Below, one piece after another: positions 5,423-46,653 of a stretch of DNA of 47,884 bases. Positions within the stretch are counted from its first letter, which is position 1, and each line of letters begins with the position of its first letter. The stretch lies in sequence record OM258170; one strand, written 5' to 3'. A program made the position numbers and the translations under genes. Source of the DNA: Escherichia phage ZL19. The notes beneath the pieces are model-generated. The model did no database searches and had not been told where the DNA came from. It saw only the letters and a program-made list of their open reading frames with translations.

Positions 5423-5500
5423 GCTCTGCTAGCTCAACAGGATAGCAGCAACGACCTTCTAAGTCGTAGGTTACTGGTTCGAATCCAGTGCGGAGCGCCA
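5423..5500 (+). tRNA. tRNA-Arg (anticodon UCU), CCA encoded
   Basis: 7-bp acceptor stem GCTCTGC/GCGGAGC, anticodon stem ACGAC/GTCGT with loop CTTCTAA, T-arm ACTGG-TTCGAAT-CCAGT, GG in D-loop; D-arm atypical (3-bp stem, long loop). Confidence 0.7.
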
Positions 5501-23408: not shown

Positions 23409-23897
23409 ATGCAAAAATTCGAGAATTACCTTTACGAGATTGATGGAAAGCTATACTGGAAGGAGGCGAGAAACAACTCGGCCAAAATAGAGTCAGAGGC
23501 TGGATTTATTCATCATTCTGGCTATAGGTATGTTAAATTGAATGACAAACAGACTTCATCTCACAGGATTCTTTGGTACTTAAGAAATGGATTCAAGATG
23601 CCACCTAAAGGCATGGAGATTGACCATATAAATGGAAACAGGCTTGACAACTCAGCTAGTAACTTACGGATTGTATCTTCATCGGTAAACTCAAAAAACA
23701 GGTCAAAAAGGTCAGATAACTCAAGCGGCGTTGCGGGAGTTGGATTTCATAAGTTAACTGGAACGTGGTGGGCTACGATATCAATAAACAAAAAGAGAAA
23801 GCACTTGGGGCTATTCGTTGATTGGTTTGAAGCAGTGTGCGCCAGAAAGAGCGCTGAGAACTTAAATGGTGAGTACACCTATAGACATGGTAAGTAA
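23409..23897 (+). CDS. HNH homing endonuclease with AP2-like domain
   Basis: EIDHINGNRLDNSASNLR HNH motif plus GVAGVGFHKLTGTWWATI AP2-like segment; free-standing between I-like and J-like genes. Confidence 0.65.
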   Translation: MQKFENYLYEIDGKLYWKEARNNSAKIESEAGFIHHSGYRYVKLNDKQTSSHRILWYLRNGFKMPPKGMEIDHINGNRLDNSASNLRIVSSSVNSKNRSKRSDNSSGVAGVGFHKLTGTWWATISINKKRKHLGLFVDWFEAVCARKSAENLNGEYTYRHGK

Positions 23898-23938: not shown

Positions 23939-26900
23939 ATGGCACAAATGATCAAAACAAACATGAGGCTTTGTGATATGGCTGAAGAGATTAAGATTTA
24001 TGGTGCCAAGGGTGGTAGCCAAAAGCAGCATCAACCAGTGGAGCAGGAAGATAACCTAATTTCACTTAACAAGGTTAAGGTTCTTTTGGCGGTTGCTGAC
24101 GGTGAGGTGGATCCTAACTTCTCATTGAAGGATTTATACCTTGCTGACGTTCCGGTACAAAATCAGGATGGTAGCTACAACTATGAAGGTGTTCGCGCTG
24201 AGTTCCGTGCTGGCACGCAGTATCAGGACTATATCGCCGGGCTTGACGGTGCTAACTCAGAGATTCAGGCATCCAGAGAAATCAAGAACGATACCCCGTA
24301 CATCATTGCAGTTAACAATACTCAGCTTTCAGCAATTCGAGTTAAGCTATTCTGGCCTCGACTGGTTAAGCAAGAAAGCAATGGAGACCTGAACGGAACA
24401 ACCTGCGAGTATGCAATTGACCTTTCTGTTAATGGTGGCGCTTACCAGGAATACACTCGCGGAGTTGCTAACGGAAAGACCACTACAGGTTACGACCGAA
24501 GCATTCGCGTAAACCTTCCGGCAGAATTTGATAGCGCGCTTGTTCGCATCCGTAAGATTACGCCGGATTCAACAAGTAGCACCCTGGTTAACGGTATGCA
24601 GATTACAACCTATCAGGAAGTAATTGACGCTAAATTCCGCTATCCGCTTACGGCTCTGGTTTACGTTGAGTTTGGTTCTGACTTGTTCCCTAACGGCATC
24701 CCAACAATCTCAATCAAGAAGAGATGGAAGTTGATTCAGGTTCCTACAAACTATAACCCTGAAACCAGAACTTATAGCGGCACATGGAATGGTCTATTCA
24801 AGATGGCATGGTCAAACAACCCAGCATGGGTTCTTTATGACCTAGTAACAAACCGCCGTTACGGACTTGACCAGCGAGAGCTGGGTGTAGAGATTGATAA
24901 GTGGGGCCTGTACGAAGCTGCACAATTCTGTGACCAGATGGTTCCAGATGGCAAGGGTGGCTTAGAGCCGCGTTACCTTTGCGATATGGTTGTACAGAAC
25001 AAGGTTGAGGCTTACACGCTAATTCGTGATATCTGTTCAATCTTTCGCGGCCTGACTTTCTATGACGGCGAAAAGATTGGCATCGTGGTTGATAAGCCTC
25101 GCAACCCATCTTACATCTTCACCAATGATAACGTTGTAAACGGATTGTTCAGTCGCACATTTGCCAGCGATAAAAGTCTTTACACCACGGCAAACGTTCA
25201 GTTTGATGATGTAGAGAACAACTATCAGCAGGATGTTGAGCCAGTATTTGAGCTTGAGGCTACTCGCAGGTTCGGGTTTAATCCAGTCGACCTTACGGCA
25301 ATTGGCTGCACTCGCAGAAGTGAAGCAAACAGACGCGGCAGATGGCTCCTAAAAACCAACCTGAGAAGCGAAACTATCAGCTTCACTACCGGGTTGGAAG
25401 GCATGATTCCGATGATTGGCGAGGTTATTGCAGTTAATGATGCGGCATGGTCGAGCAACTATCAGTTGAACCTTTCCGGCCGCATTGAATCAGTGCAGGG
25501 GCTACAGGTTTTTACACCGTTTAAAGTTGACGCAGCGCCGGGTGACAGAATTCTTCTTAACAAGCCAGACGGAAGCCCGGAGGCAAGAACTATTGCCAGT
25601 GTTTCGGAAGACGGCAGAACAATCAACCTTAACACTGCTTTCAGTTTTGTAGCTCAGCCAGACACTGTGTTCGCAATTGATAAGGATAACCTTGCGCTTC
25701 AGCAGTATGTTGTGACCGGGATTCAAAAGGCAGATACTGACGGCTCTGATTCATTTCAGTACACGATTACTGCGGTGGAGTATGACCCTAACAAGTATGA
25801 CGAGATTGACTACGGCGTTAATATTGTTGACCGTCCAACTTCAGTCGTAGAGCCTGATAGATTGTCGCCACCTGAGAATTTAACAGTGTCAAGCTACAGC
25901 AAGGTTGTTCAAGGATTATCAGTTGAGACGATGGTTATCGGGTGGGATAAAGCGCCATACGCTAAAACCTACAATGTTCAATGGAGGAAAGAGAATGGTA
26001 ACTGGATTAACGTACCCAGAACAGCAAGCACAGAAGTTGATATCGAAGGTATTTACGCAGGAATCTATGACGTTAGGGTTCGCAGCGTATCAGATACTGA
26101 AAACGTGTCTGCCTGGTCTGACATTGTAACGGTGTCGCTAACTGGCAAGATTGGTCGCCCATCGGCGCCTACTGTTATCACGGCATCAACAGATGAGGTA
26201 TTTGGCATCCGTGTTAAGTGGGGTTTCCCTGAAGGCTCTGGTGACACTGCTTACACTGAACTTCAGCAGGTCCCTGATAATGGTGACGGCACTTACAATC
26301 CTGATAACGCAAGTTTGCTTACGTTACTTCCGTATCCGGCATATGAATACTGGCACACTCCGATTCAGCCAGGTAAGGCTATCTGGTATCGCGCAAGATT
26401 GATTGACAGAATAGGTAATACGTCTGATTGGTCTAGTTTCGCAAGAGGCATGAGTACTGACGACGAAAACATTATCAATGATTACATCAAAGTTGATATT
26501 GAAGGCTCAGAAGGATTCAAATACCTCGAACAGAATGCGATTCAAAAGAATCAGGACATCCAGAACCAGGCAGAATCAATTCTTGAGAACGCATTAGCTA
26601 ATGACACTGATGTTCGTCGCATGACAAAGGAGAATGGCGCAAGAAAGGCGGAGTATGTTCAGGCTGTGAATCTCATAGCCGATGAAACTCAGGCGCGCGT
26701 AGAGGCTCTAACGGCCCTTAAGGCGCAGATAGATGATGAAGTTGTAGCATCGATTACAGAAGTTCAGACTGCATTAGCCACAGAGACAGAAGCAAGGACT
26801 ACTGCAGACACGACTCTATCAGCAAGACTTGGTGAAAATGAGGCGGCTTTAAACCAGAAGCTGGACGCATTCTCTAATGCCACATCGACTGGTGTGCAGT

Positions 26901-27295
26901 ACGGAATTAGTCTTGGCCTGAAATACAATGGACAGACTTATTCATCCGGTATGAGCATGGAGCTTGTTGGTACTGGTGGTAATGTTCGCAGTCAGTTCAT
27001 CTTTGACGCAAACAGATTCGCAATCAGTAATGGTATTGGTTCTGGCTCCGGTCAATGGCAGCTCCCCTTCGTTGTAGAGAACGGAAACGTAATCATCCAA
27101 AGCGCGGTAATTGGCGATGGATCAATCAGCAACGCGAAGATTGGTAACTTCATTCAGTCTAATGACTGGGGTACAAATTCAGGCTGGAGGCTAGATAAGG
27201 ATGATGGATTGACGCTTAGGGGTTCCGATCGTGGCAAGATGAGAGTCCTGGACCGGAATGGAGTGGTTAGGGTAAAATTAGGATACTTGGGTTAA
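23939..27295 (+). CDS. central tail fibre / host specificity protein (lambda J-like)
   Basis: 1118 aa; segment QVPTNYNPETRTYSGTWNGLFKMAWSNNPAWVLYDLVTNRRYG aligns by eye with lambda J; start may be ATG 23978. Confidence 0.85.
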   Translation: MAQMIKTNMRLCDMAEEIKIYGAKGGSQKQHQPVEQEDNLISLNKVKVLLAVADGEVDPNFSLKDLYLADVPVQNQDGSYNYEGVRAEFRAGTQYQDYIAGLDGANSEIQASREIKNDTPYIIAVNNTQLSAIRVKLFWPRLVKQESNGDLNGTTCEYAIDLSVNGGAYQEYTRGVANGKTTTGYDRSIRVNLPAEFDSALVRIRKITPDSTSSTLVNGMQITTYQEVIDAKFRYPLTALVYVEFGSDLFPNGIPTISIKKRWKLIQVPTNYNPETRTYSGTWNGLFKMAWSNNPAWVLYDLVTNRRYGLDQRELGVEIDKWGLYEAAQFCDQMVPDGKGGLEPRYLCDMVVQNKVEAYTLIRDICSIFRGLTFYDGEKIGIVVDKPRNPSYIFTNDNVVNGLFSRTFASDKSLYTTANVQFDDVENNYQQDVEPVFELEATRRFGFNPVDLTAIGCTRRSEANRRGRWLLKTNLRSETISFTTGLEGMIPMIGEVIAVNDAAWSSNYQLNLSGRIESVQGLQVFTPFKVDAAPGDRILLNKPDGSPEARTIASVSEDGRTINLNTAFSFVAQPDTVFAIDKDNLALQQYVVTGIQKADTDGSDSFQYTITAVEYDPNKYDEIDYGVNIVDRPTSVVEPDRLSPPENLTVSSYSKVVQGLSVETMVIGWDKAPYAKTYNVQWRKENGNWINVPRTASTEVDIEGIYAGIYDVRVRSVSDTENVSAWSDIVTVSLTGKIGRPSAPTVITASTDEVFGIRVKWGFPEGSGDTAYTELQQVPDNGDGTYNPDNASLLTLLPYPAYEYWHTPIQPGKAIWYRARLIDRIGNTSDWSSFARGMSTDDENIINDYIKVDIEGSEGFKYLEQNAIQKNQDIQNQAESILENALANDTDVRRMTKENGARKAEYVQAVNLIADETQARVEALTALKAQIDDEVVASITEVQTALATETEARTTADTTLSARLGENEAALNQKLDAFSNATSTGVQYGISLGLKYNGQTYSSGMSMELVGTGGNVRSQFIFDANRFAISNGIGSGSGQWQLPFVVENGNVIIQSAVIGDGSISNAKIGNFIQSNDWGTNSGWRLDKDDGLTLRGSDRGKMRVLDRNGVVRVKLGYLG

Positions 27296-27336
27296 TAAAT
27301 TATTGGCGGGTAAATCCCGCCTAAGGTTTTATTTGT

Positions 27337-27708
27337 ATGGCTGGTTTGTATGGTTGGGAGATGTACGATTCTGCGGGGCGGCTTGTAGCTGACAATAGCA
27401 GCATAATGAGCAGGAGGCTATTCACTTATAGCGTGCCACTGATAAGGGCTTTATCTGCAAACATACCATGGGAAGTCTCATTTAATGTTAACTTCTCAAA
27501 TGGAACGCCTTATGCGCATTGCAATACCAGAACAGGGGTGGTGGTCCCTGCATCTACTAACTGGTATCCAGTATCACCTGATATAATAATATCTGGAAAT
27601 GCAGTTACACTCAGGTATACAAACAGGCATGTTTCCTATCCGGACGATCTTGGGTACATACTTGCAGTTGGTGGTGTTGATGTTCACTTAGGAGTTTATA
27701 ATAAATGA
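27337..27708 (+). CDS. hypothetical protein, paralog of next gene (tail/host-range associated?)
   Basis: N-terminus YGWEMYDSAGRLVAD resembles N-terminus of ORF 27705. Confidence 0.4.
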   Translation: MAGLYGWEMYDSAGRLVADNSSIMSRRLFTYSVPLIRALSANIPWEVSFNVNFSNGTPYAHCNTRTGVVVPASTNWYPVSPDIIISGNAVTLRYTNRHVSYPDDLGYILAVGGVDVHLGVYNK

Positions 27709-28502
27709 GTGATTATGGTGTTGAACTAATAAATGACTATGGTTTAAAGGTTGCTGACGCAGAGGATGTAAATTACGTACTAAGAAGTTCTGGTACATTT
27801 AATGATTCAAATTTCTACTCATATGCAAACTCCACATCTGCAATTAGCCTCATGACCACAGGAATGAATTCGCCTCTTCTATTTCTAAAGATGAACGAAA
27901 GTAGGTCAAGGATAAGCCAGAAGCCTGGAGTTAACAAAATATCACCTGATTTTGTTAACCCAAATACCACAATAACAAAGACAAGCATAGACCTATTCAA
28001 GTGGTGGAACATACCGCTAGGAACTGTAGAGTATTACATATTTGACAAGTGGATCCCGCCAGAAAGAAGTGATTATGGAATGCAGATATTTAATGAATCT
28101 GGTTCTATAATCTTTGATTCTGGCTGGTACTTCCTCAAACTTAGGGATGTGCTATGGCTTGATCCAAGTTATCCAAACCATTCAGATCAGGAAGGTGGTA
28201 GTAACTGGACTAACGTCGGGAATATTGTCAACTCCGCGAACGTATCAAACTCAGCATTATCAATGCCTGTTGGTAGGGGGTGGGTTGAAACATCATTGCA
28301 GGGTGGGTACTACTATAATGAATGCTGTCACCTTGACTCATCCGGTAATCTATTTATATCCATAATACCTACAGGTATATACCTTGATGTTTCACCAACT
28401 GGCGGCTGGGTTGGCAATATGAGGACGCAAGTTATGGTTTGCGACACCTCGAGGCTGCCTCTTAATTACAATCCAGTTGAGATAAGAAAGGAAAACAAAT
28501 AA
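27705..28502 (+). CDS. hypothetical Asn/Ser-rich protein with repeated DYG motif
   Basis: ATGA overlap with upstream paralog; two DYG-x-x-x-x-N-x-x-G segments. Confidence 0.4.
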   Translation: MSDYGVELINDYGLKVADAEDVNYVLRSSGTFNDSNFYSYANSTSAISLMTTGMNSPLLFLKMNESRSRISQKPGVNKISPDFVNPNTTITKTSIDLFKWWNIPLGTVEYYIFDKWIPPERSDYGMQIFNESGSIIFDSGWYFLKLRDVLWLDPSYPNHSDQEGGSNWTNVGNIVNSANVSNSALSMPVGRGWVETSLQGGYYYNECCHLDSSGNLFISIIPTGIYLDVSPTGGWVGNMRTQVMVCDTSRLPLNYNPVEIRKENK

Positions 28503-28504
28503 AA

Positions 28505-28528
28505 ATAAGGCCCTTAATGGGCCTTCTT
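28505..28528. terminator. bidirectional terminator
   Basis: AGGCCC-TTAAT-GGGCCT hairpin between convergent genes. Confidence 0.5.
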
Positions 28529-28699
28529 GTTAAAACAATATCCAGCTGGTAAAACCGAATAAAGATTTTGATTTACCTCTCCATTGCTGTATTCACAACC
28601 TCTAATTGTAACTGAGTAGTCACTGATAAGAACTATAGTTCTTTCACCGCCTGAACAACCAGCTAAAATCATTGCAGTGATAACGATTAATTTTTTCAT
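28514..28699 (-). CDS. small lipoprotein (Cor/Llp-like superinfection-exclusion candidate)
   Basis: Signal peptide with lipobox LAGC, 61 aa, located beside tail fibre genes. Confidence 0.45.
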   Translation of the reverse strand: MKKLIVITAMILAGCSGGERTIVLISDYSVTIRGCEYSNGEVNQNLYSVLPAGYCFNKKAH

Positions 28700-28700
28700 C

Positions 28701-28805
28701 TTAGAACCCTTTAAAGTTGCTAGCCAGCATCAGAAGCCATACGAAGAAACCAGTAGCTGCTACACCGAAGATTGCAGAGATTACGTTAGTAGTTAAGTTA
28801 GTCAT
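28701..28805 (-). CDS. small hydrophobic membrane peptide (34 aa)
   Basis: ATG with AAGGA RBS; stop abuts lipoprotein start; single predicted TM; below track cutoff. Confidence 0.35.
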   Translation of the reverse strand: MTNLTTNVISAIFGVAATGFFVWLLMLASNFKGF

Positions 28806-28826
28806 TTTGTATTCCTTAGTAAGTGT

Positions 28827-28866
28827 GTTTCGTTTCGATGGAAAGATAATACCGCATCCTTGCGAT
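28827..28866 (-). repeat. 40-bp perfect repeat (promoter -10 plus leader), copy A
   Basis: Identical to 46447-46486. Confidence 0.8.
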
Positions 28867-28888
28867 AAGTGTTTAGCAATTAGTGCTA
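28846..28888 (-). promoter_or_regulatory. palindrome-type promoter module (minus strand)
   Basis: Motif TAGCACTAATTGCTA on minus strand, -10 TATTAT 37 bp downstream, leader CCATCGAAACGAAAC. Confidence 0.5.
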
Positions 28889-29158
28889 TTAGTGAATATC
28901 CTCACAGCCAGGAATGGACTTAACATTGTAATGCCGATAAGCGAATATCAAGTTAAGAGCCTGCTCGACCGTGCATTTAAGGGCGCCAGAGATAATAAAT
29001 GAAGACTCAGTGATGTGATTTATTAACTCATTTCTGACAGGGTCGTCATCTGCTAGTAACTCTGCGCGCTTAACAAAAAGAGCGTTGTTTACCAGGATTG
29101 TCACAACCTTTTCATTGAGCTCTTTCTTCGCTTTTGCAATCTCTTTCTCGTAGTTCAT
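28889..29158 (-). CDS. hypothetical protein (89 aa)
   Basis: ORF with AAGGCGG RBS. Confidence 0.4.
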   Translation of the reverse strand: MNYEKEIAKAKKELNEKVVTILVNNALFVKRAELLADDDPVRNELINHITESSFIISGALKCTVEQALNLIFAYRHYNVKSIPGCEDIH

Positions 29159-29300: not shown

Positions 29301-29948
29301 CTACTTATCTTTAAGTAGCAACTTGATATCAATTCCTAGATTATTCTCAATCAATCCAGTCAGTGCACCTACCTTTTCCTTAAGCGCGAAGCATTGCGAT
29401 TCATACTTAAATCTTTCCTCCATCTCATCAGAACGACTAACCCAACACTGGCGAGCCTCACAAGCCAACATGTCGAGTTTTTCATCGGTATTCTTATCCA
29501 TGAGTAAGATCTCATTTATCCTTTGCTCTGCAACAATGCGCTGACTCAGGTGTGCATTTTGCGCATTAGCCACACCAAGCATCATGCGCGCTTCTTTTAA
29601 CTCATCAATGCTTACCATCTTACTGATTACTTCTTCTTGTTTTTTGACTAACGCCTCAAGTTCATGAAGTCGACGGATAACCCTGTGACGAAGAACGACG
29701 CTATAGCCAGTTATTAGCGTTTCTGTAAGTTCCTTGTTAAGTAAAATCTCTGATGTATAGCCGCGATTGTCCGTAAGTACTTGATAATCATCATGACCCA
29801 AATCTGGGGCATCGTTATAATGTAACAATTCATTGATCATTTCCTTTGTGTCGCGAACGACGTGATCATGACGCTTACCTGTCAATTCAGCAATTTCCTT
29901 CGTGCTCATCATGGTTTTTGGCTGTTCTTTGTACGCCTCAATGTTCAT
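29301..29948 (-). CDS. Rha-family regulatory protein with coiled-coil C-terminus
   Basis: MSTKEIAELTGKRHDHVVRDTKEMI matches Rha pattern; track ORF trimmed to ATG with AAGAGAGA RBS. Confidence 0.55.
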   Translation of the reverse strand: MNIEAYKEQPKTMMSTKEIAELTGKRHDHVVRDTKEMINELLHYNDAPDLGHDDYQVLTDNRGYTSEILLNKELTETLITGYSVVLRHRVIRRLHELEALVKKQEEVISKMVSIDELKEARMMLGVANAQNAHLSQRIVAEQRINEILLMDKNTDEKLDMLACEARQCWVSRSDEMEERFKYESQCFALKEKVGALTGLIENNLGIDIKLLLKDK

Positions 29949-30052
29949 TTTAGTCTCTCTTATGTTTTTCATGTCTCAGATTTTAGCCATCGTTTGGTTT
30001 TGGTCTATCGATTTTCGGTAGACCAAGCAGCACCATTGCCGCCATGCGCCTA

Positions 30053-42271: not shown

Positions 42272-42448
42272 ATGACCAAGATGATTTATTGCACAAAGAA
42301 CAACTCCAAGACCCTGCCATTTACAGTTAACCAGCCGTACAATGCAGAGTACCAGGGTGATGGATATTACAAGATTTACAGCGACGATATGACGTGGATT
42401 TTAGCGCCGATTGAAGGTTCACTGGTTGAATTTATTATCGCTGACTAG
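42272..42448 (+). CDS. small ORF (58 aa)
   Basis: ATG with GAGGAAACACAAG RBS after promoter module; below track cutoff. Confidence 0.35.
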   Translation: MTKMIYCTKNNSKTLPFTVNQPYNAEYQGDGYYKIYSDDMTWILAPIEGSLVEFIIAD

Positions 42449-42474
42449 CACAGAAAAAACATAGCGTTACGCAC

Positions 42475-42500
42475 GGGGAGCCTTTGGGCTCCCTTTTTTT
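42475..42500 (+). terminator. intrinsic terminator upstream of lysis cassette
   Basis: GGGGAGCC-TTTG-GGCTCCC hairpin plus T7. Confidence 0.7.
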
Positions 42501-42578
42501 GTGCTTCTTTTACGAGCAGGGCTAATGTATCATTCTTTTACTAACTTAAACATTGACAAATACATAAAGGTGGATCAC

Positions 42579-42794
42579 ATGAGGGAAGTAATCAACGCCG
42601 CTACGGCATCAACTGGCGGTGCTGCGGTAACTGGCGCGGCAACTGGTCAAATGACTATAGCAATAATCAGCCTTATCGCTCTAATCATTTTTGGAGCTTG
42701 GGGTGCTTACTGGAAGTATAAGGATAGCCAGGCAATTCGACGAGCGCTTGAATCAAGGGATTTAAAGACGGCAATCAAGATAAGGAGCAGGTAA
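42579..42794 (+). CDS. holin (pinholin-like)
   Basis: 72 aa; Gly/Ala-rich weak TM1 and strong TM2 then charged tail; abuts endolysin start; track ORF starts at upstream GTG. Confidence 0.55.
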   Translation: MREVINAATASTGGAAVTGAATGQMTIAIISLIALIIFGAWGAYWKYKDSQAIRRALESRDLKTAIKIRSR

Positions 42795-43280
42795 ATGAAG
42801 CAGAAGCTGGTAGTTGGTGCTGCGACCGCTGCGGCAATATACATCGCAGCGCCGCTTATTGAGCTTGTAGAGGGTGTTGAGAATAGGCCTTACATGGACA
42901 TTGCTGGGGTGAAAACTGTTTGTGCTGGCGTAACTGGTCCTGACGTAGTTTGGGGTAAGACTTACAGTAACAGGGAGTGCCGGAACCTGCTGGAGAAACA
43001 CATTCAGATTCATGGGAAGCATGTTCAGGATGCAGTTACCTACCCAATTTCACCGCAGACAAGAGCGGCGTTAATCAGCTTTAGCTACAATGTTGGTGGT
43101 CATGCTATGAAGAACTCAACAGCAGTTCGACTTATTAACCAGGGTAAAGTGGAGCAGGGTTGCAGGGCTCTCGGGGTGTGGAATAAAGCTACCATTAACG
43201 GCAAGAAGGTTGTGGTTAAGGGGTTGGTAAATCGCAGGAATGAGGAGATTAAGTTATGCTTAAGTGGATTGCAGCGTTAG
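42795..43280 (+). CDS. SAR endolysin (lysozyme)
   Basis: N-terminal signal-anchor-release-like TM; PYMDIAGVKTVCAGVTG...GKTYSNRECRNLL resembles phage 21 R-type lysozymes. Confidence 0.8.
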   Translation: MKQKLVVGAATAAAIYIAAPLIELVEGVENRPYMDIAGVKTVCAGVTGPDVVWGKTYSNRECRNLLEKHIQIHGKHVQDAVTYPISPQTRAALISFSYNVGGHAMKNSTAVRLINQGKVEQGCRALGVWNKATINGKKVVVKGLVNRRNEEIKLCLSGLQR

Positions 43281-43645
43281 TAATGTGCGTAGCTTTATCT
43301 GGATGTTCAGCAACATCCGCGCTGACCGGATTAATTGGCAGCAAGCCAGAGATTAGCGCCCAGGCTGGCGCTGAGAACAATAAGGTTGGTGTTGGGTTAA
43401 CGAACAAGGTTGACTCAAGTAACTCAAGTGAAGCCACGGTTAAAGATTCTAAGGTTGGGTCACTGGATAGCTCGAGCGGGAAAAAGACTGCTGACAACTC
43501 GATTAAGGCCTCAACAATCACTGCTGAAAAGATTGAGATCACAAATAACGAATCATCAGCGCTTCCGTGGGTCGGAACAGGAGCAATGGGGTTGCTGGTT
43601 CTTATTCTCATGGCATTAATCTTAAGACGTAAAAAAGCCCCCTAA
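43256..43645 (+). CDS. unimolecular spanin (T1 gp11-like)
   Basis: N-terminal lipoprotein signal (LSGC) plus C-terminal TM followed by RRKK; overlaps endolysin 3' end. Confidence 0.7.
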   Translation: MLKWIAALVMCVALSGCSATSALTGLIGSKPEISAQAGAENNKVGVGLTNKVDSSNSSEATVKDSKVGSLDSSSGKKTADNSIKASTITAEKIEITNNESSALPWVGTGAMGLLVLILMALILRRKKAP

Positions 43646-46095: not shown

Positions 46096-46256
46096 TATTT
46101 CGCTCTCTTCGTTGTCCACATGAATTTGTTTGGTACTGATTTGCGCACTATTCGTACAACAATCTTATCAGTCTTCTGAACTAAACCGTAAATCTTTCCA
46201 TCAAGGGAGGCTCGGTAAACGGCCTCCTCCATTGCGTCATGAAAGTTGTCGAACAT
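46095..46256 (-). CDS. small ORF (53 aa)
   Basis: ATG overlapping stop of upstream gene, stop overlapping next ATG; below track cutoff. Confidence 0.3.
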   Translation of the reverse strand: MFDNFHDAMEEAVYRASLDGKIYGLVQKTDKIVVRIVRKSVPNKFMWTTKRAK

Positions 46257-46429
46257 TAGTGAGCCTTGTAGTTGGTAGAGAATTTAGCACCTTCGAATTT
46301 TGAAGGGCGGCGGTTAGCGTTAATTGCTTCGTAAGTTTTTTTAGTGTCGCGAGCATCAATCACTTCAACAACCATCATGGCAACCATCGGGAAAACTACT
46401 GCGATAACCATCAGAGTTAAAATAATCAT
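46256..46429 (-). CDS. small membrane protein (57 aa)
   Basis: ATG 46429 with AAAGGTAAAG RBS; N-terminal TM segment; track ORF extends upstream into promoter leader. Confidence 0.4.
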   Translation of the reverse strand: MIILTLMVIAVVFPMVAMMVVEVIDARDTKKTYEAINANRRPSKFEGAKFSTNYKAH

Positions 46430-46446
46430 TTTCTTTACCTTTCGTT

Positions 46447-46486
46447 GTTTCGTTTCGATGGAAAGATAATACCGCATCCTTGCGAT
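46447..46486 (-). repeat. 40-bp perfect repeat (promoter -10 plus leader), copy B
   Basis: Identical to 28827-28866. Confidence 0.8.
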
Positions 46487-46508
46487 TCTGTTTTAGCAAT
46501 TCGTGCTA
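46466..46508 (-). promoter_or_regulatory. palindrome-type promoter module (minus strand)
   Basis: Motif TAGCACGAATTGCTA on minus strand at 46494-46508, -10 TATTAT 46466-46471. Confidence 0.5.
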
Positions 46509-46653
46509 TTTCGTGCCTTTTCTATCGCCTTGAGCATAATTTCATGACTCTCAAGCAAGTCTTCGCGAAACCAGTCGCCGCAGGGCCAACCCTTTCCGCT
46601 GTAGGCGCTAATAACTTCCAGATCGAAATAATTTATCTCAGATGGTAGAAGCA

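Follow-up and report, generated by a model that had tools for sequence, protein, structure and literature searches.

The window analysed here is the whole 47,884-nucleotide (nt) stretch of sequence record OM258170 from Escherichia phage ZL19, an Rtpvirus-like, T1-like member of the Drexlerviridae. On its minus strand, at the distal end of the receptor-specificity locus that begins with the gpJ-like tail fibre gene, lies a short cassette composed of a promoter-like element, a gene for a peptide of 34 amino acids (aa), a gene for a 61-aa lipoprotein and a terminator-like hairpin (Table 1). An earlier note on this DNA had read the two genes as a unit with its own promoter, in which a lipoprotein of the Cor or Llp kind excludes superinfecting phages and the membrane peptide could add something new to the exclusion system. 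As argued below, the peptide is encoded by a genuine, conserved gene, probably not tied to the lipoprotein, which is itself best placed as a divergent relative of Cor.

Both open reading frames (ORFs) of the pair stand as the earlier note had described them, one base apart, the peptide stop codon, a single G and the lipoprotein start codon reading TAAGATG. The pair goes beyond what chance would give, since the 375-nt cassette is 100% identical across five phage records, IME253 included, and the peptide frame is conserved in orthologues, with a ratio of non-synonymous to synonymous substitution rates (dN/dS) that is mostly below 0.5. A Shine-Dalgarno-like AAGGA is found 7 nt ahead of the peptide ATG, and the Shine-Dalgarno sequence of the lipoprotein gene, AAGGG, is located within the last codons of the peptide gene. 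The 20-nt spacer of the promoter-like element contains a short GC hairpin at 28867..28850, and a conserved leader, CCATCGAAACGAAAC, lies downstream of TATTAT; at the other end, the terminator-like hairpin overlaps the lipoprotein stop codon and stands 5 nt past the end of the convergent 265-aa gene. No match to Rfam was obtained in the cassette region. The description of a two-gene unit was borne out as regards the two genes and the element upstream, but the cassette does not stand alone: it is the tail end of a longer minus-strand block, in which a Rha/Ant-like gene (29972..29301) and an 89-aa ORF (29158..28889) come before it. This last ORF is present in IME253, where it is annotated as gp63, and absent from the otherwise matching phage Rao1, and it has no family match in Pfam, PHROGs, NCBIfam or PADLOC.

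Table 1. Features of the cassette and of related regions of the window (positions in the window)
Feature	Position	Strand	Basis or remarks
Promoter-like element	28846..28889	-	18-mer ATAGCACTAATTGCTAAA (28889..28872), 20-nt spacer, -10-like TATTAT (28851..28846)
34-aa single-span membrane peptide, MTNLTTNVISAIFGVAATGFFVWLLMLASNFKGF	28701..28805	-	ORF, conservation; AAGGA at 28817..28813
Lipoprotein signal peptide, MKKLIVITAMILAGC, ending in lipobox LAGC	28655..28699	-	Sequence and segment comparison
Mature lipoprotein, 46 residues after Cys15, and stop codon	28514..28654	-	Receptor-specific part
Terminator-like hairpin AAGGCCCATTAAGGGCCTT and T run	28497..28525	-	Hairpin at 28525..28507
gpJ-like central tail fibre / tail tip protein	23939..27295	+	PHROG 31 'central tail fiber J', E = 0; marks start of locus
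123-aa locus gene, directly after gpJ	27337..27708	+	Presumed receptor-binding protein/accessory pair of FepA-type allele
265-aa locus gene	27705..28502	+	PHROG 4062 (E 3e-53, unknown function); convergent with lipoprotein gene
Further copies of the element (examples)	2913, 3694, 8214, 16235, 31746, 35557, 39592	+	Motif repeat
Further copies of the element (examples)	30096, 46509, 47696	-	Motif repeat
Lysis cassette: SH3-like gene, holin, endolysin, unimolecular spanin	42272..43645	+	14 kb from the cassette

The peptide has one hydrophobic span, in agreement with the single transmembrane segment claimed for it (Kyte-Doolittle mean over 19 residues, with a maximum of 2.19 at residues 8-26). By tblastn with the 34-aa query, which very divergent homologues may escape, its family was found in 159 phage records, with full-length matches that nearly all cover residues 1-34, and about 25 of the loci were inspected directly. 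By host, these carriers comprise 127 records from Klebsiella, 20 from Escherichia, four each from Shigella and Enterobacter, two from Pantoea and two others. Of the orthologues read, which come from at least eight genera or groups, all except two keep a frame of 34 codons, with 31-39 codons at a few loci. In an alignment of ten sequences, with families at 41-50% identity, G14, W23, L27, A28, F31, G33 and F34 are invariant, and length and hydrophobic character are also retained down to this level. The motif of the family includes G14, T18-G19, W23, L27-A28, N30-F31 and G33-F34, and, among 17 loci that were read out, nearly all retain the C-terminal stretch W-V-x-x-L-A-S/G-N-F-K/N-G-F. Under this retained motif the codons vary: serine is written AGC, AGT or TCN, glycine with all four of its codons, and the stop codon is TAA, TGA or TAG. 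Moreover, in the seven orthologues that precede Cor-type genes, dN/dS ranges from 0.11 to 0.83 and is mostly below 0.5. Because the amino acid motif persists through synonymous codon and stop changes, the comparison shows that the 34-codon ORF is a genuine gene selected at the protein level, and not merely an overlapping ribosome-binding site.

Judged from the searches performed, the peptide is an undescribed, conserved and phage-only micro-protein. No match was found in Pfam, NCBIfam or PADLOC, the best hit in PHROGs was non-significant (PHROG 33885, E 0.36), and a search of 185,579 species of bacteria and archaea, each represented by one genome, detected no relative. A protein search with the peptide padded by upstream codons gave only two near-identical 34-aa proteins, and phmmer against 1.84 billion representatives gave one real match. 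In the literature searched there is no mention of a small transmembrane peptide upstream of cor, and a 2026 paper on the cor cassette of KanT1 does not contain the word 'transmembrane'. The gene is unannotated in IME253, phiA2-1, Sd1, Sf12 and MM01. In Pantoea phage AAS23, the annotated gp41 (1716-1895 of the inspected locus) follows a frame different from that of the conserved peptide ORF, MKNFMNKLTSTLICTGLGMMVTAGFVWVILLASSFKGF, which lies on the same DNA; gp41 is probably a mis-annotation.

Depending on the phage group, different genes follow the peptide. Homologues of Cor occur in 220 phage records, and the peptide adjoins a Cor-type gene in about 24 of them; T1, which has Cor, shows no trace of it, and it is missing from the LptD-type (Rtp-type) loci, in which the same promoter and leader lead straight into the Rtp45-like lipoprotein gene. 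In Webervirus (Sushi, Kp109 and others) and in one further contig, the peptide gene follows helicase and VRR-NUC genes and abuts a Dam methylase gene, a context established for the five examined among the 127 Klebsiella records. In AAS23 (Sauletekiovirus) and five IMG/VR contigs, it stands ahead of the genes for an SH3-like protein, holin, endolysin and spanin. Whatever the context, no other cistron stands between the promoter-like element and the peptide gene, whose stop codon lies between -11 and +10 nt from the next start. Furthermore, the peptide is 88% identical between ZL19, which is FepA-type, and Sd1, which is FhuA-type, and the mature lipoproteins of the two cannot be aligned at the DNA level. 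With this distribution, and no co-variation with the receptor-specific part of the lipoprotein, the idea of a new exclusion component is weakened, and a dedicated partnership between peptide and lipoprotein is improbable.

The way in which similarity to other phages is distributed along the cassette points in the same direction. From the promoter, across the peptide gene and as far as the signal peptide, the DNA resembles that of FhuA-type phages, and this similarity ends exactly at the Cys15 codon (query position 236). Against Sd1, MM01, Sadiya and JulesPiccard, nucleotide identity is 78-84% in the promoter/leader segment, 74-89% in the peptide segment, 61-84% in the signal-peptide segment (82-84% with the first three) and about 50%, the background level, in the mature lipoprotein segment. 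Because the lipobox cysteine is precisely where the versions of other phages cease to be similar, the peptide falls on the side of the conserved backbone, that of a subset of Drexlerviridae, and not in the swapped receptor module. The simplest reading of its several positions is that of a small, self-contained gene which was carried from one operon head to another by recombination between the repeated elements. As a separate observation, the Rtp45-type lipoproteins of AugustePiccard (2584-2814) and CEB_EC3a (2583-2825; both in coordinates of the inspected loci) begin with MTNL..., the first four codons of the peptide, and the DNA similarity of these phages to the window stops after those codons (28805..28794). 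Since MTNL is shared and the similarity ends there, a recombination joint appears to lie within the first codons, where either the peptide start was fused to the signal sequence of a lipoprotein or the opposite took place.

The element at the head of the cassette is one of 16-18 copies in the window. The copies are intergenic, each is co-oriented with the gene downstream, and they precede replication and recombination genes as well as structural genes. The element, of about 60 nt, consists of ATAGCAC-G/T-AATTGCTAAA, 19-20 nt, a hexamer TATAGT, TATAAT or TATTAT, and a CCATCGAAACGA-like leader; its core is given as ATAGCACGAATTGCTAAA, and the 19-20 nt spacer after the core often holds a GC hairpin, which is present in many copies and is annotated as a terminator in some records. 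TTGCTA and the -10-like hexamer are 22 nt apart, a spacing that is non-canonical for sigma-70. The element is conserved across genera, being kept upstream of the peptide gene in all lineages examined and, among other Drexlerviridae, in each of the three genomic contexts. The claim of a promoter proper to the cassette is therefore retained in so far as a conserved, co-oriented promoter-like element lies upstream, but the spacing is not sigma-70-like and the element is one copy of a repeat. That the cassette copy acts as a promoter is plausible, and the nature of the repeat may be that of a promoter, a terminator-promoter or a regulator site. At 46509..46256 on the minus strand, a near-duplicate of the cassette promoter/leader (82% over 100 nt) stands ahead of the gene for a different small protein, of 57 aa, with an N-terminal transmembrane segment (MIILTLMVIAVVFPMVAMMVVEV...) and a weak match to PHROG 7482 (E 3e-4, unknown function).

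The second gene of the cassette (28699..28514, minus strand) encodes the 61-aa protein MKKLIVITAMILAGCSGGERTIVLISDYSVTIRGCEYSNGEVNQNLYSVLPAGYCFNKKAH, which starts with MKK, continues with a hydrophobic core and carries the lipobox L-A-G-C15, so that the lipoprotein with lipobox LAGC of the earlier note is confirmed as one with a classical signal peptide. Position +2 is occupied by Ser and not by Asp (MKKLIVITAMILAGC-S), as expected of a small secreted lipoprotein of the Cor kind, and because of this Ser sorting to the outer membrane is implied. The position of the gene is also that of Cor: the distal end of the locus formed by gpJ and the receptor-binding genes, on the opposite strand and convergent to the two genes after gpJ. 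The equivalent slot is occupied by Cor in T1, Sd1, Sf12, JulesPiccard and others, and by Rtp45-like proteins in AugustePiccard and CEB_EC3a.

The full-length protein matches PHROG 1119 (Cor) with E 7e-5, reaches a probability of 97% in hhalign against seven Cor proteins and has about 40% identity with annotated Cor proteins. As for the mature part, BLASTP against mature T1 Cor gave E 0.003, Smith-Waterman scores against Cor were equalled by 0.6-6% of shuffles (p about 0.006-0.06), and a hidden Markov model (HMM) built from nine mature Cor proteins of Drexlerviridae, Dhillonvirus and lambdoid phages gave 8.4 bits, equalled by 4 of 3000 shuffles. In the HMM alignment D-YSV falls opposite E-YSV, and P-AGYCF opposite the invariant R-AGYPF of Cor, and the weak match spans the motifs ERT, D/E-YSV and AGY-x-F. 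The similarity of the mature part to Cor is marginal, weak yet non-random. Neither T5 Llp nor Rtp45 (9RPS) chains were matched in a sequence search of the PDB, and Smith-Waterman comparison with AugustePiccard bas01_0029, of the Rtp45 type, indicated no similarity (p 0.25). The mature part was found only in the IME253/Rao1/TR3/phiA2-1 group, and no homologue of the lipoprotein beyond its own phage group was detected among 5.8 billion proteins. Of the proposed kinship with Cor and Llp, the slot, the lipobox and a weak Cor match in the comparison suggested by the earlier note have stood, but the similarity of the mature part is marginal and the Llp side found no match. The lipoprotein is probably a new divergent member of a known system, of the sort expected at such a locus.

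The receptor can be approached through the relatives of ZL19. Between 27300 and 30600, the window is 98% identical at the nucleotide level to four phages, namely IME253 (Rtpvirus, Braunvirinae, Drexlerviridae), Rao1, phiA2-1 and TR3. The part that starts at 27300, where gpJ ends, and reaches about 29290 is shared with these four phages of the IME253 group only; farther on, many Drexlerviridae match again. The receptor of IME253 has been identified by experiment as FepA: resistant mutants were devoid of fepA, delta-fepA and delta-tonB strains were not infected, and complementation gave back plating and adsorption (PMC6499177). Phage phiA2-1, with an identical cassette, was isolated with a delta-fhuA strain as host. 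Since IME253 carries the identical cassette and uses FepA, and phiA2-1 was isolated on a delta-fhuA host, the receptor-specificity locus of ZL19 is probably a FepA-type allele; for the first of these reasons FepA, and not FhuA, is the likely target of the lipoprotein, and on both grounds the lipoprotein would not be expected to block FhuA-dependent phages and colicins. The 123-aa and 265-aa proteins are presumed to be the receptor-binding protein and the accessory protein of this allele. The latter has a weak match to PHROG 425 (E 6.9e-5), 'membrane associated protein', which is the RefSeq family name for T1 gp31; direct BLASTP of both plus-strand locus proteins against T1 gp31 and gp32 was not significant.

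Receptor-specificity loci of just this layout, with an exclusion lipoprotein, have been described in Drexlerviridae in the BASEL paper (PMC8594841) and in the study of LptDE and Rtp45 (bioRxiv 10.1101/2025.07.07.663478), and cryo-electron microscopy has shown that Rtp45 binds the periplasmic side of LptDE and distorts loops needed by the phage receptor-binding protein (bioRxiv 10.1101/2025.07.07.663478). Three systems can be set beside the ZL19 lipoprotein. With Cor (PHROG 1119; T1, phi80, N15, HK022 and many Drexlerviridae), it shares the nature of a small lipoprotein, an outer-membrane-type lipobox, the place at the opposite-strand end of the gpJ/receptor-binding locus, a signal peptide homologous at the DNA level and, in the mature part, the order ERT ... 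D/E-YSV ... AGY-x-F. It differs in length (61 aa, whereas Cor has 72-77), in missing the invariant C-terminal block of Cor (YVSxxNFKxxxC) with its Cys pair, and in the associated receptor, FhuA for Cor and FepA here. With Rtp45 and SE_Oeko (Rtp-type and Dhillonvirus phages, PDB 9RPS), the phage subfamily, the slot and the conserved promoter/leader are shared, and the kind of protein would be the same, a lipoprotein of small size (about 6 kDa) that faces the periplasm and from there prevents binding of the receptor-binding protein. There is, however, no detectable sequence similarity to Rtp45, and the Rtp45-type gene lies directly behind the promoter, without a peptide, and precedes its own receptor-binding protein gene on the same strand, unlike in ZL19. 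Finally, T5 Llp (FhuA-Llp, PDB 8A60) is also encoded beside a receptor-binding protein gene and, by locking a TonB-dependent transporter from the periplasmic side, offers a mechanistic template for a blocker of FepA, although it belongs to another phage family and has no sequence match with the ZL19 lipoprotein. The lipoprotein is most likely a very divergent, C-terminally shortened Cor-like exclusion protein with FepA as its target. A connection of Cor-like proteins with phages that use BtuB has been reported before (PMC13164509), and because they are noted beside BtuB-type loci, FepA as a target fits the pattern.

The explanation preferred here, and considered rather probable as a whole, is that of a FepA-blocking exclusion lipoprotein and an independent backbone peptide in one short transcription unit. 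The unit, with promoter-like element, peptide, lipoprotein and terminator, would occupy the distal end of the receptor-specificity locus. By analogy, the lipoprotein would be exported and matured via Sec, Lgt/Lsp and Lol, and would then bind the periplasmic side of FepA, the TonB-dependent transporter that the phage itself uses as receptor. Bound FepA would be unusable for the phage receptor-binding protein, with the result that superinfecting phages of the same receptor are excluded and progeny is not wasted on debris. Cor and Llp work in this manner on FhuA, and Rtp45 on LptD. The peptide is translationally coupled to whichever gene comes next; it would insert as a single helix in the inner membrane and would act alone, not as a subunit of the blocking mechanism.

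Several points weigh against this explanation. The full-length scores with Cor are inflated by the signal peptide, which is shared with FhuA-type phages through recombination; the mature 47 residues alone have no match in PHROGs, where mature Sd1 Cor reaches E 3.7e-20, and their similarity to Cor is of the marginal degree given above. The C-terminal third of Cor (YVSxxNFKxxxC) is absent, the protein ending in AGYCFNKKAH, and cysteine positions differ. A Foldseek search of the PDB gave no match at E <= 0.001, with a single-sequence AlphaFold2 model of poor quality (predicted local distance difference test 62) that makes it a weak test of the fold. Binding to FepA is derived solely from gene position and from the receptor of the relative with the identical cassette. 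On the side of the peptide, the context counts have the reach of the tblastn search described above, and every lineage with the peptide before a Cor-type gene keeps a tight coupling, with a gap of 1-10 nt, in three subgroups of Drexlerviridae; such coupling of peptide and lipoprotein is compatible with some functional link.

If that link were a dedicated one, the peptide would be a second exclusion component, for example an inner-membrane helper by which the lipoprotein reaches or locks the receptor, or a blocker of the TonB-dependent step that complements the block of the receptor by the lipoprotein. Phages of Braunvirinae, Rogunavirinae and Nouzillyvirus preserve the order of the two genes, the stop of one almost touching the start of the other, all verified pairs lie beside FhuA-type or FepA-type loci, and the receptor types with data (T1/FhuA and IME253/FepA) are both TonB-dependent. 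This alternative is nevertheless quite unlikely when it is considered that T1 Cor exists without the peptide, that Rtp45 binds LptDE when expressed without a phage partner, that only a small part of the Cor-bearing records and none of the Dam or lysis contexts, to which most carriers belong, join the two, and that the peptide hardly changes between FepA-type and FhuA-type phages whose mature lipoproteins are unalignable. Very improbable, too, is a role in cis, in which the 34-codon ORF would be a translated leader feeding ribosomes to the next gene and its product would be functionless. Its constant place as first cistron after the element, the narrow distance of its stop from any next start and the downstream Shine-Dalgarno sequence within its last codons would be explained in this way, but it is the amino acids and not the DNA that are conserved (Ser, Gly and stop codons vary under a kept C-terminal motif), dN/dS is below 1, and length and hydrophobicity persist among distant families. 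The peptide has also been considered as a lysis-timing factor, antiholin-like or holin-modulating, that was moved to another promoter copy in the ZL19 lineage. It is directly upstream of the SH3-like, holin, endolysin and spanin genes in AAS23 and the five IMG/VR contigs, and its N-terminus is loosely holin-like, as with MKDFI in both proteins of one inspected locus; the comparison of the peptide-family profile with holin N-termini was, however, not significant (hhalign probability 29%), and the peptide is far from the lysis genes in Webervirus, the largest group, and in ZL19, which leaves this role very doubtful. On the same result, the idea that the peptide is a paralogue of the first transmembrane segment of the holin was rejected.

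As regards the lipoprotein, the alternative is another small envelope lipoprotein, o-spanin-like or an unrelated moron, and not a receptor blocker. It draws on a match to PHROG 6073 'Rz-like spanin' (E 1e-4), nearly equal to the Cor score, and on a mature part that has neither a PHROG family nor a homologue outside the phage group. The spanin match, like the Cor match, vanishes when the signal peptide is removed, however, and holin, endolysin and a unimolecular spanin are already in their canonical place in ZL19. A two-component spanin (Rz/Rz1) needs an i-spanin with an N-terminal transmembrane helix and a long periplasmic coiled coil in the lysis cassette; here no i-spanin partner is found, the 34-aa peptide being without a periplasmic domain. 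In addition, the slot is that of an exclusion lipoprotein in every receptor-type allele examined, and the mature part retains its weak, non-random similarity to Cor. The chances of a non-blocking lipoprotein in general are put as slim, and the spanin reading in particular was rejected, the PHROG match being signal-peptide-dependent, the phage having its own unimolecular spanin and the cassette lying 14 kb from the lysis genes.

Within the preferred explanation of an independent backbone peptide, its function can be narrowed only tentatively. T4 Imm, HK97 gp15 and P22 SieA are inner-membrane exclusion proteins that protect the infected or lysogenic cell; gp15 and Imm have roughly 60-85 aa and SieA is much larger, so that all exceed the 34-aa peptide. 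They would be its nearest functional analogy if it acted in exclusion, but homology with them is not expected, and its neighbours in the genome, Dam or the lysis cassette, are no specific pointer to exclusion. Two functions lead among the guesses: one, rather unlikely, is a block at the inner membrane, independent of the receptor and directed at DNA entry or energisation, and the other, unlikely, is a tuning of envelope or lysis events. A wider proposal must be counted as equally speculative as the latter: the peptide would found a family of inner-membrane micro-proteins that give receptor-independent protection by disabling a step at the inner membrane on which incoming siphophage DNA or TonB-dependent receptors rely, for instance the ExbBD-TonB system or a DNA-entry factor, forming with the lipoprotein a two-layer exclusion unit in ZL19 and being hitched in other Drexlerviridae to other early or late operons by recombination of the element.

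Were the block of FepA true, FepA would join FhuA and BtuB as the third TonB-dependent transporter among the targets of Cor-like proteins, and the mature lipoprotein, with its 46 residues, would be a minimal ligand of the enterobactin receptor on its periplasmic face. This would help to understand the effects of blockers on receptor loops and to predict receptor use from phage genomes. The peptide, for its part, is a conserved phage-only micro-protein often overlooked by gene callers, and its movement between three operon-leading positions illustrates the shuffling of small genes by repeated promoter elements among T1-like phages.

Some further features of the window were observed. Directly upstream of the holin gene, at 42272..42448 on the plus strand, a 58-aa protein is encoded (PHROG 4788, E 4e-33), which by position is the counterpart of the standalone SH3 gene upstream of the lysis genes of Drexlerviridae (PMC13164509); in other genera the 34-aa peptide gene lies immediately ahead of its homologue. 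Between the tail assembly genes and gpJ, at 23409..23897 on the plus strand, there is a 162-aa ORF; in Rao1 and IME253 the corresponding gene bears the annotation of an HNH homing endonuclease, so that the ORF is likely a mobile insertion in the tail operon. Finally, a tRNA gene (Rfam RF00005, 55.9 bits) is found at 5423..5497 on the plus strand; one arginyl-tRNA has been reported for T1-like phages of the group of ZL19 (PMC4070988).

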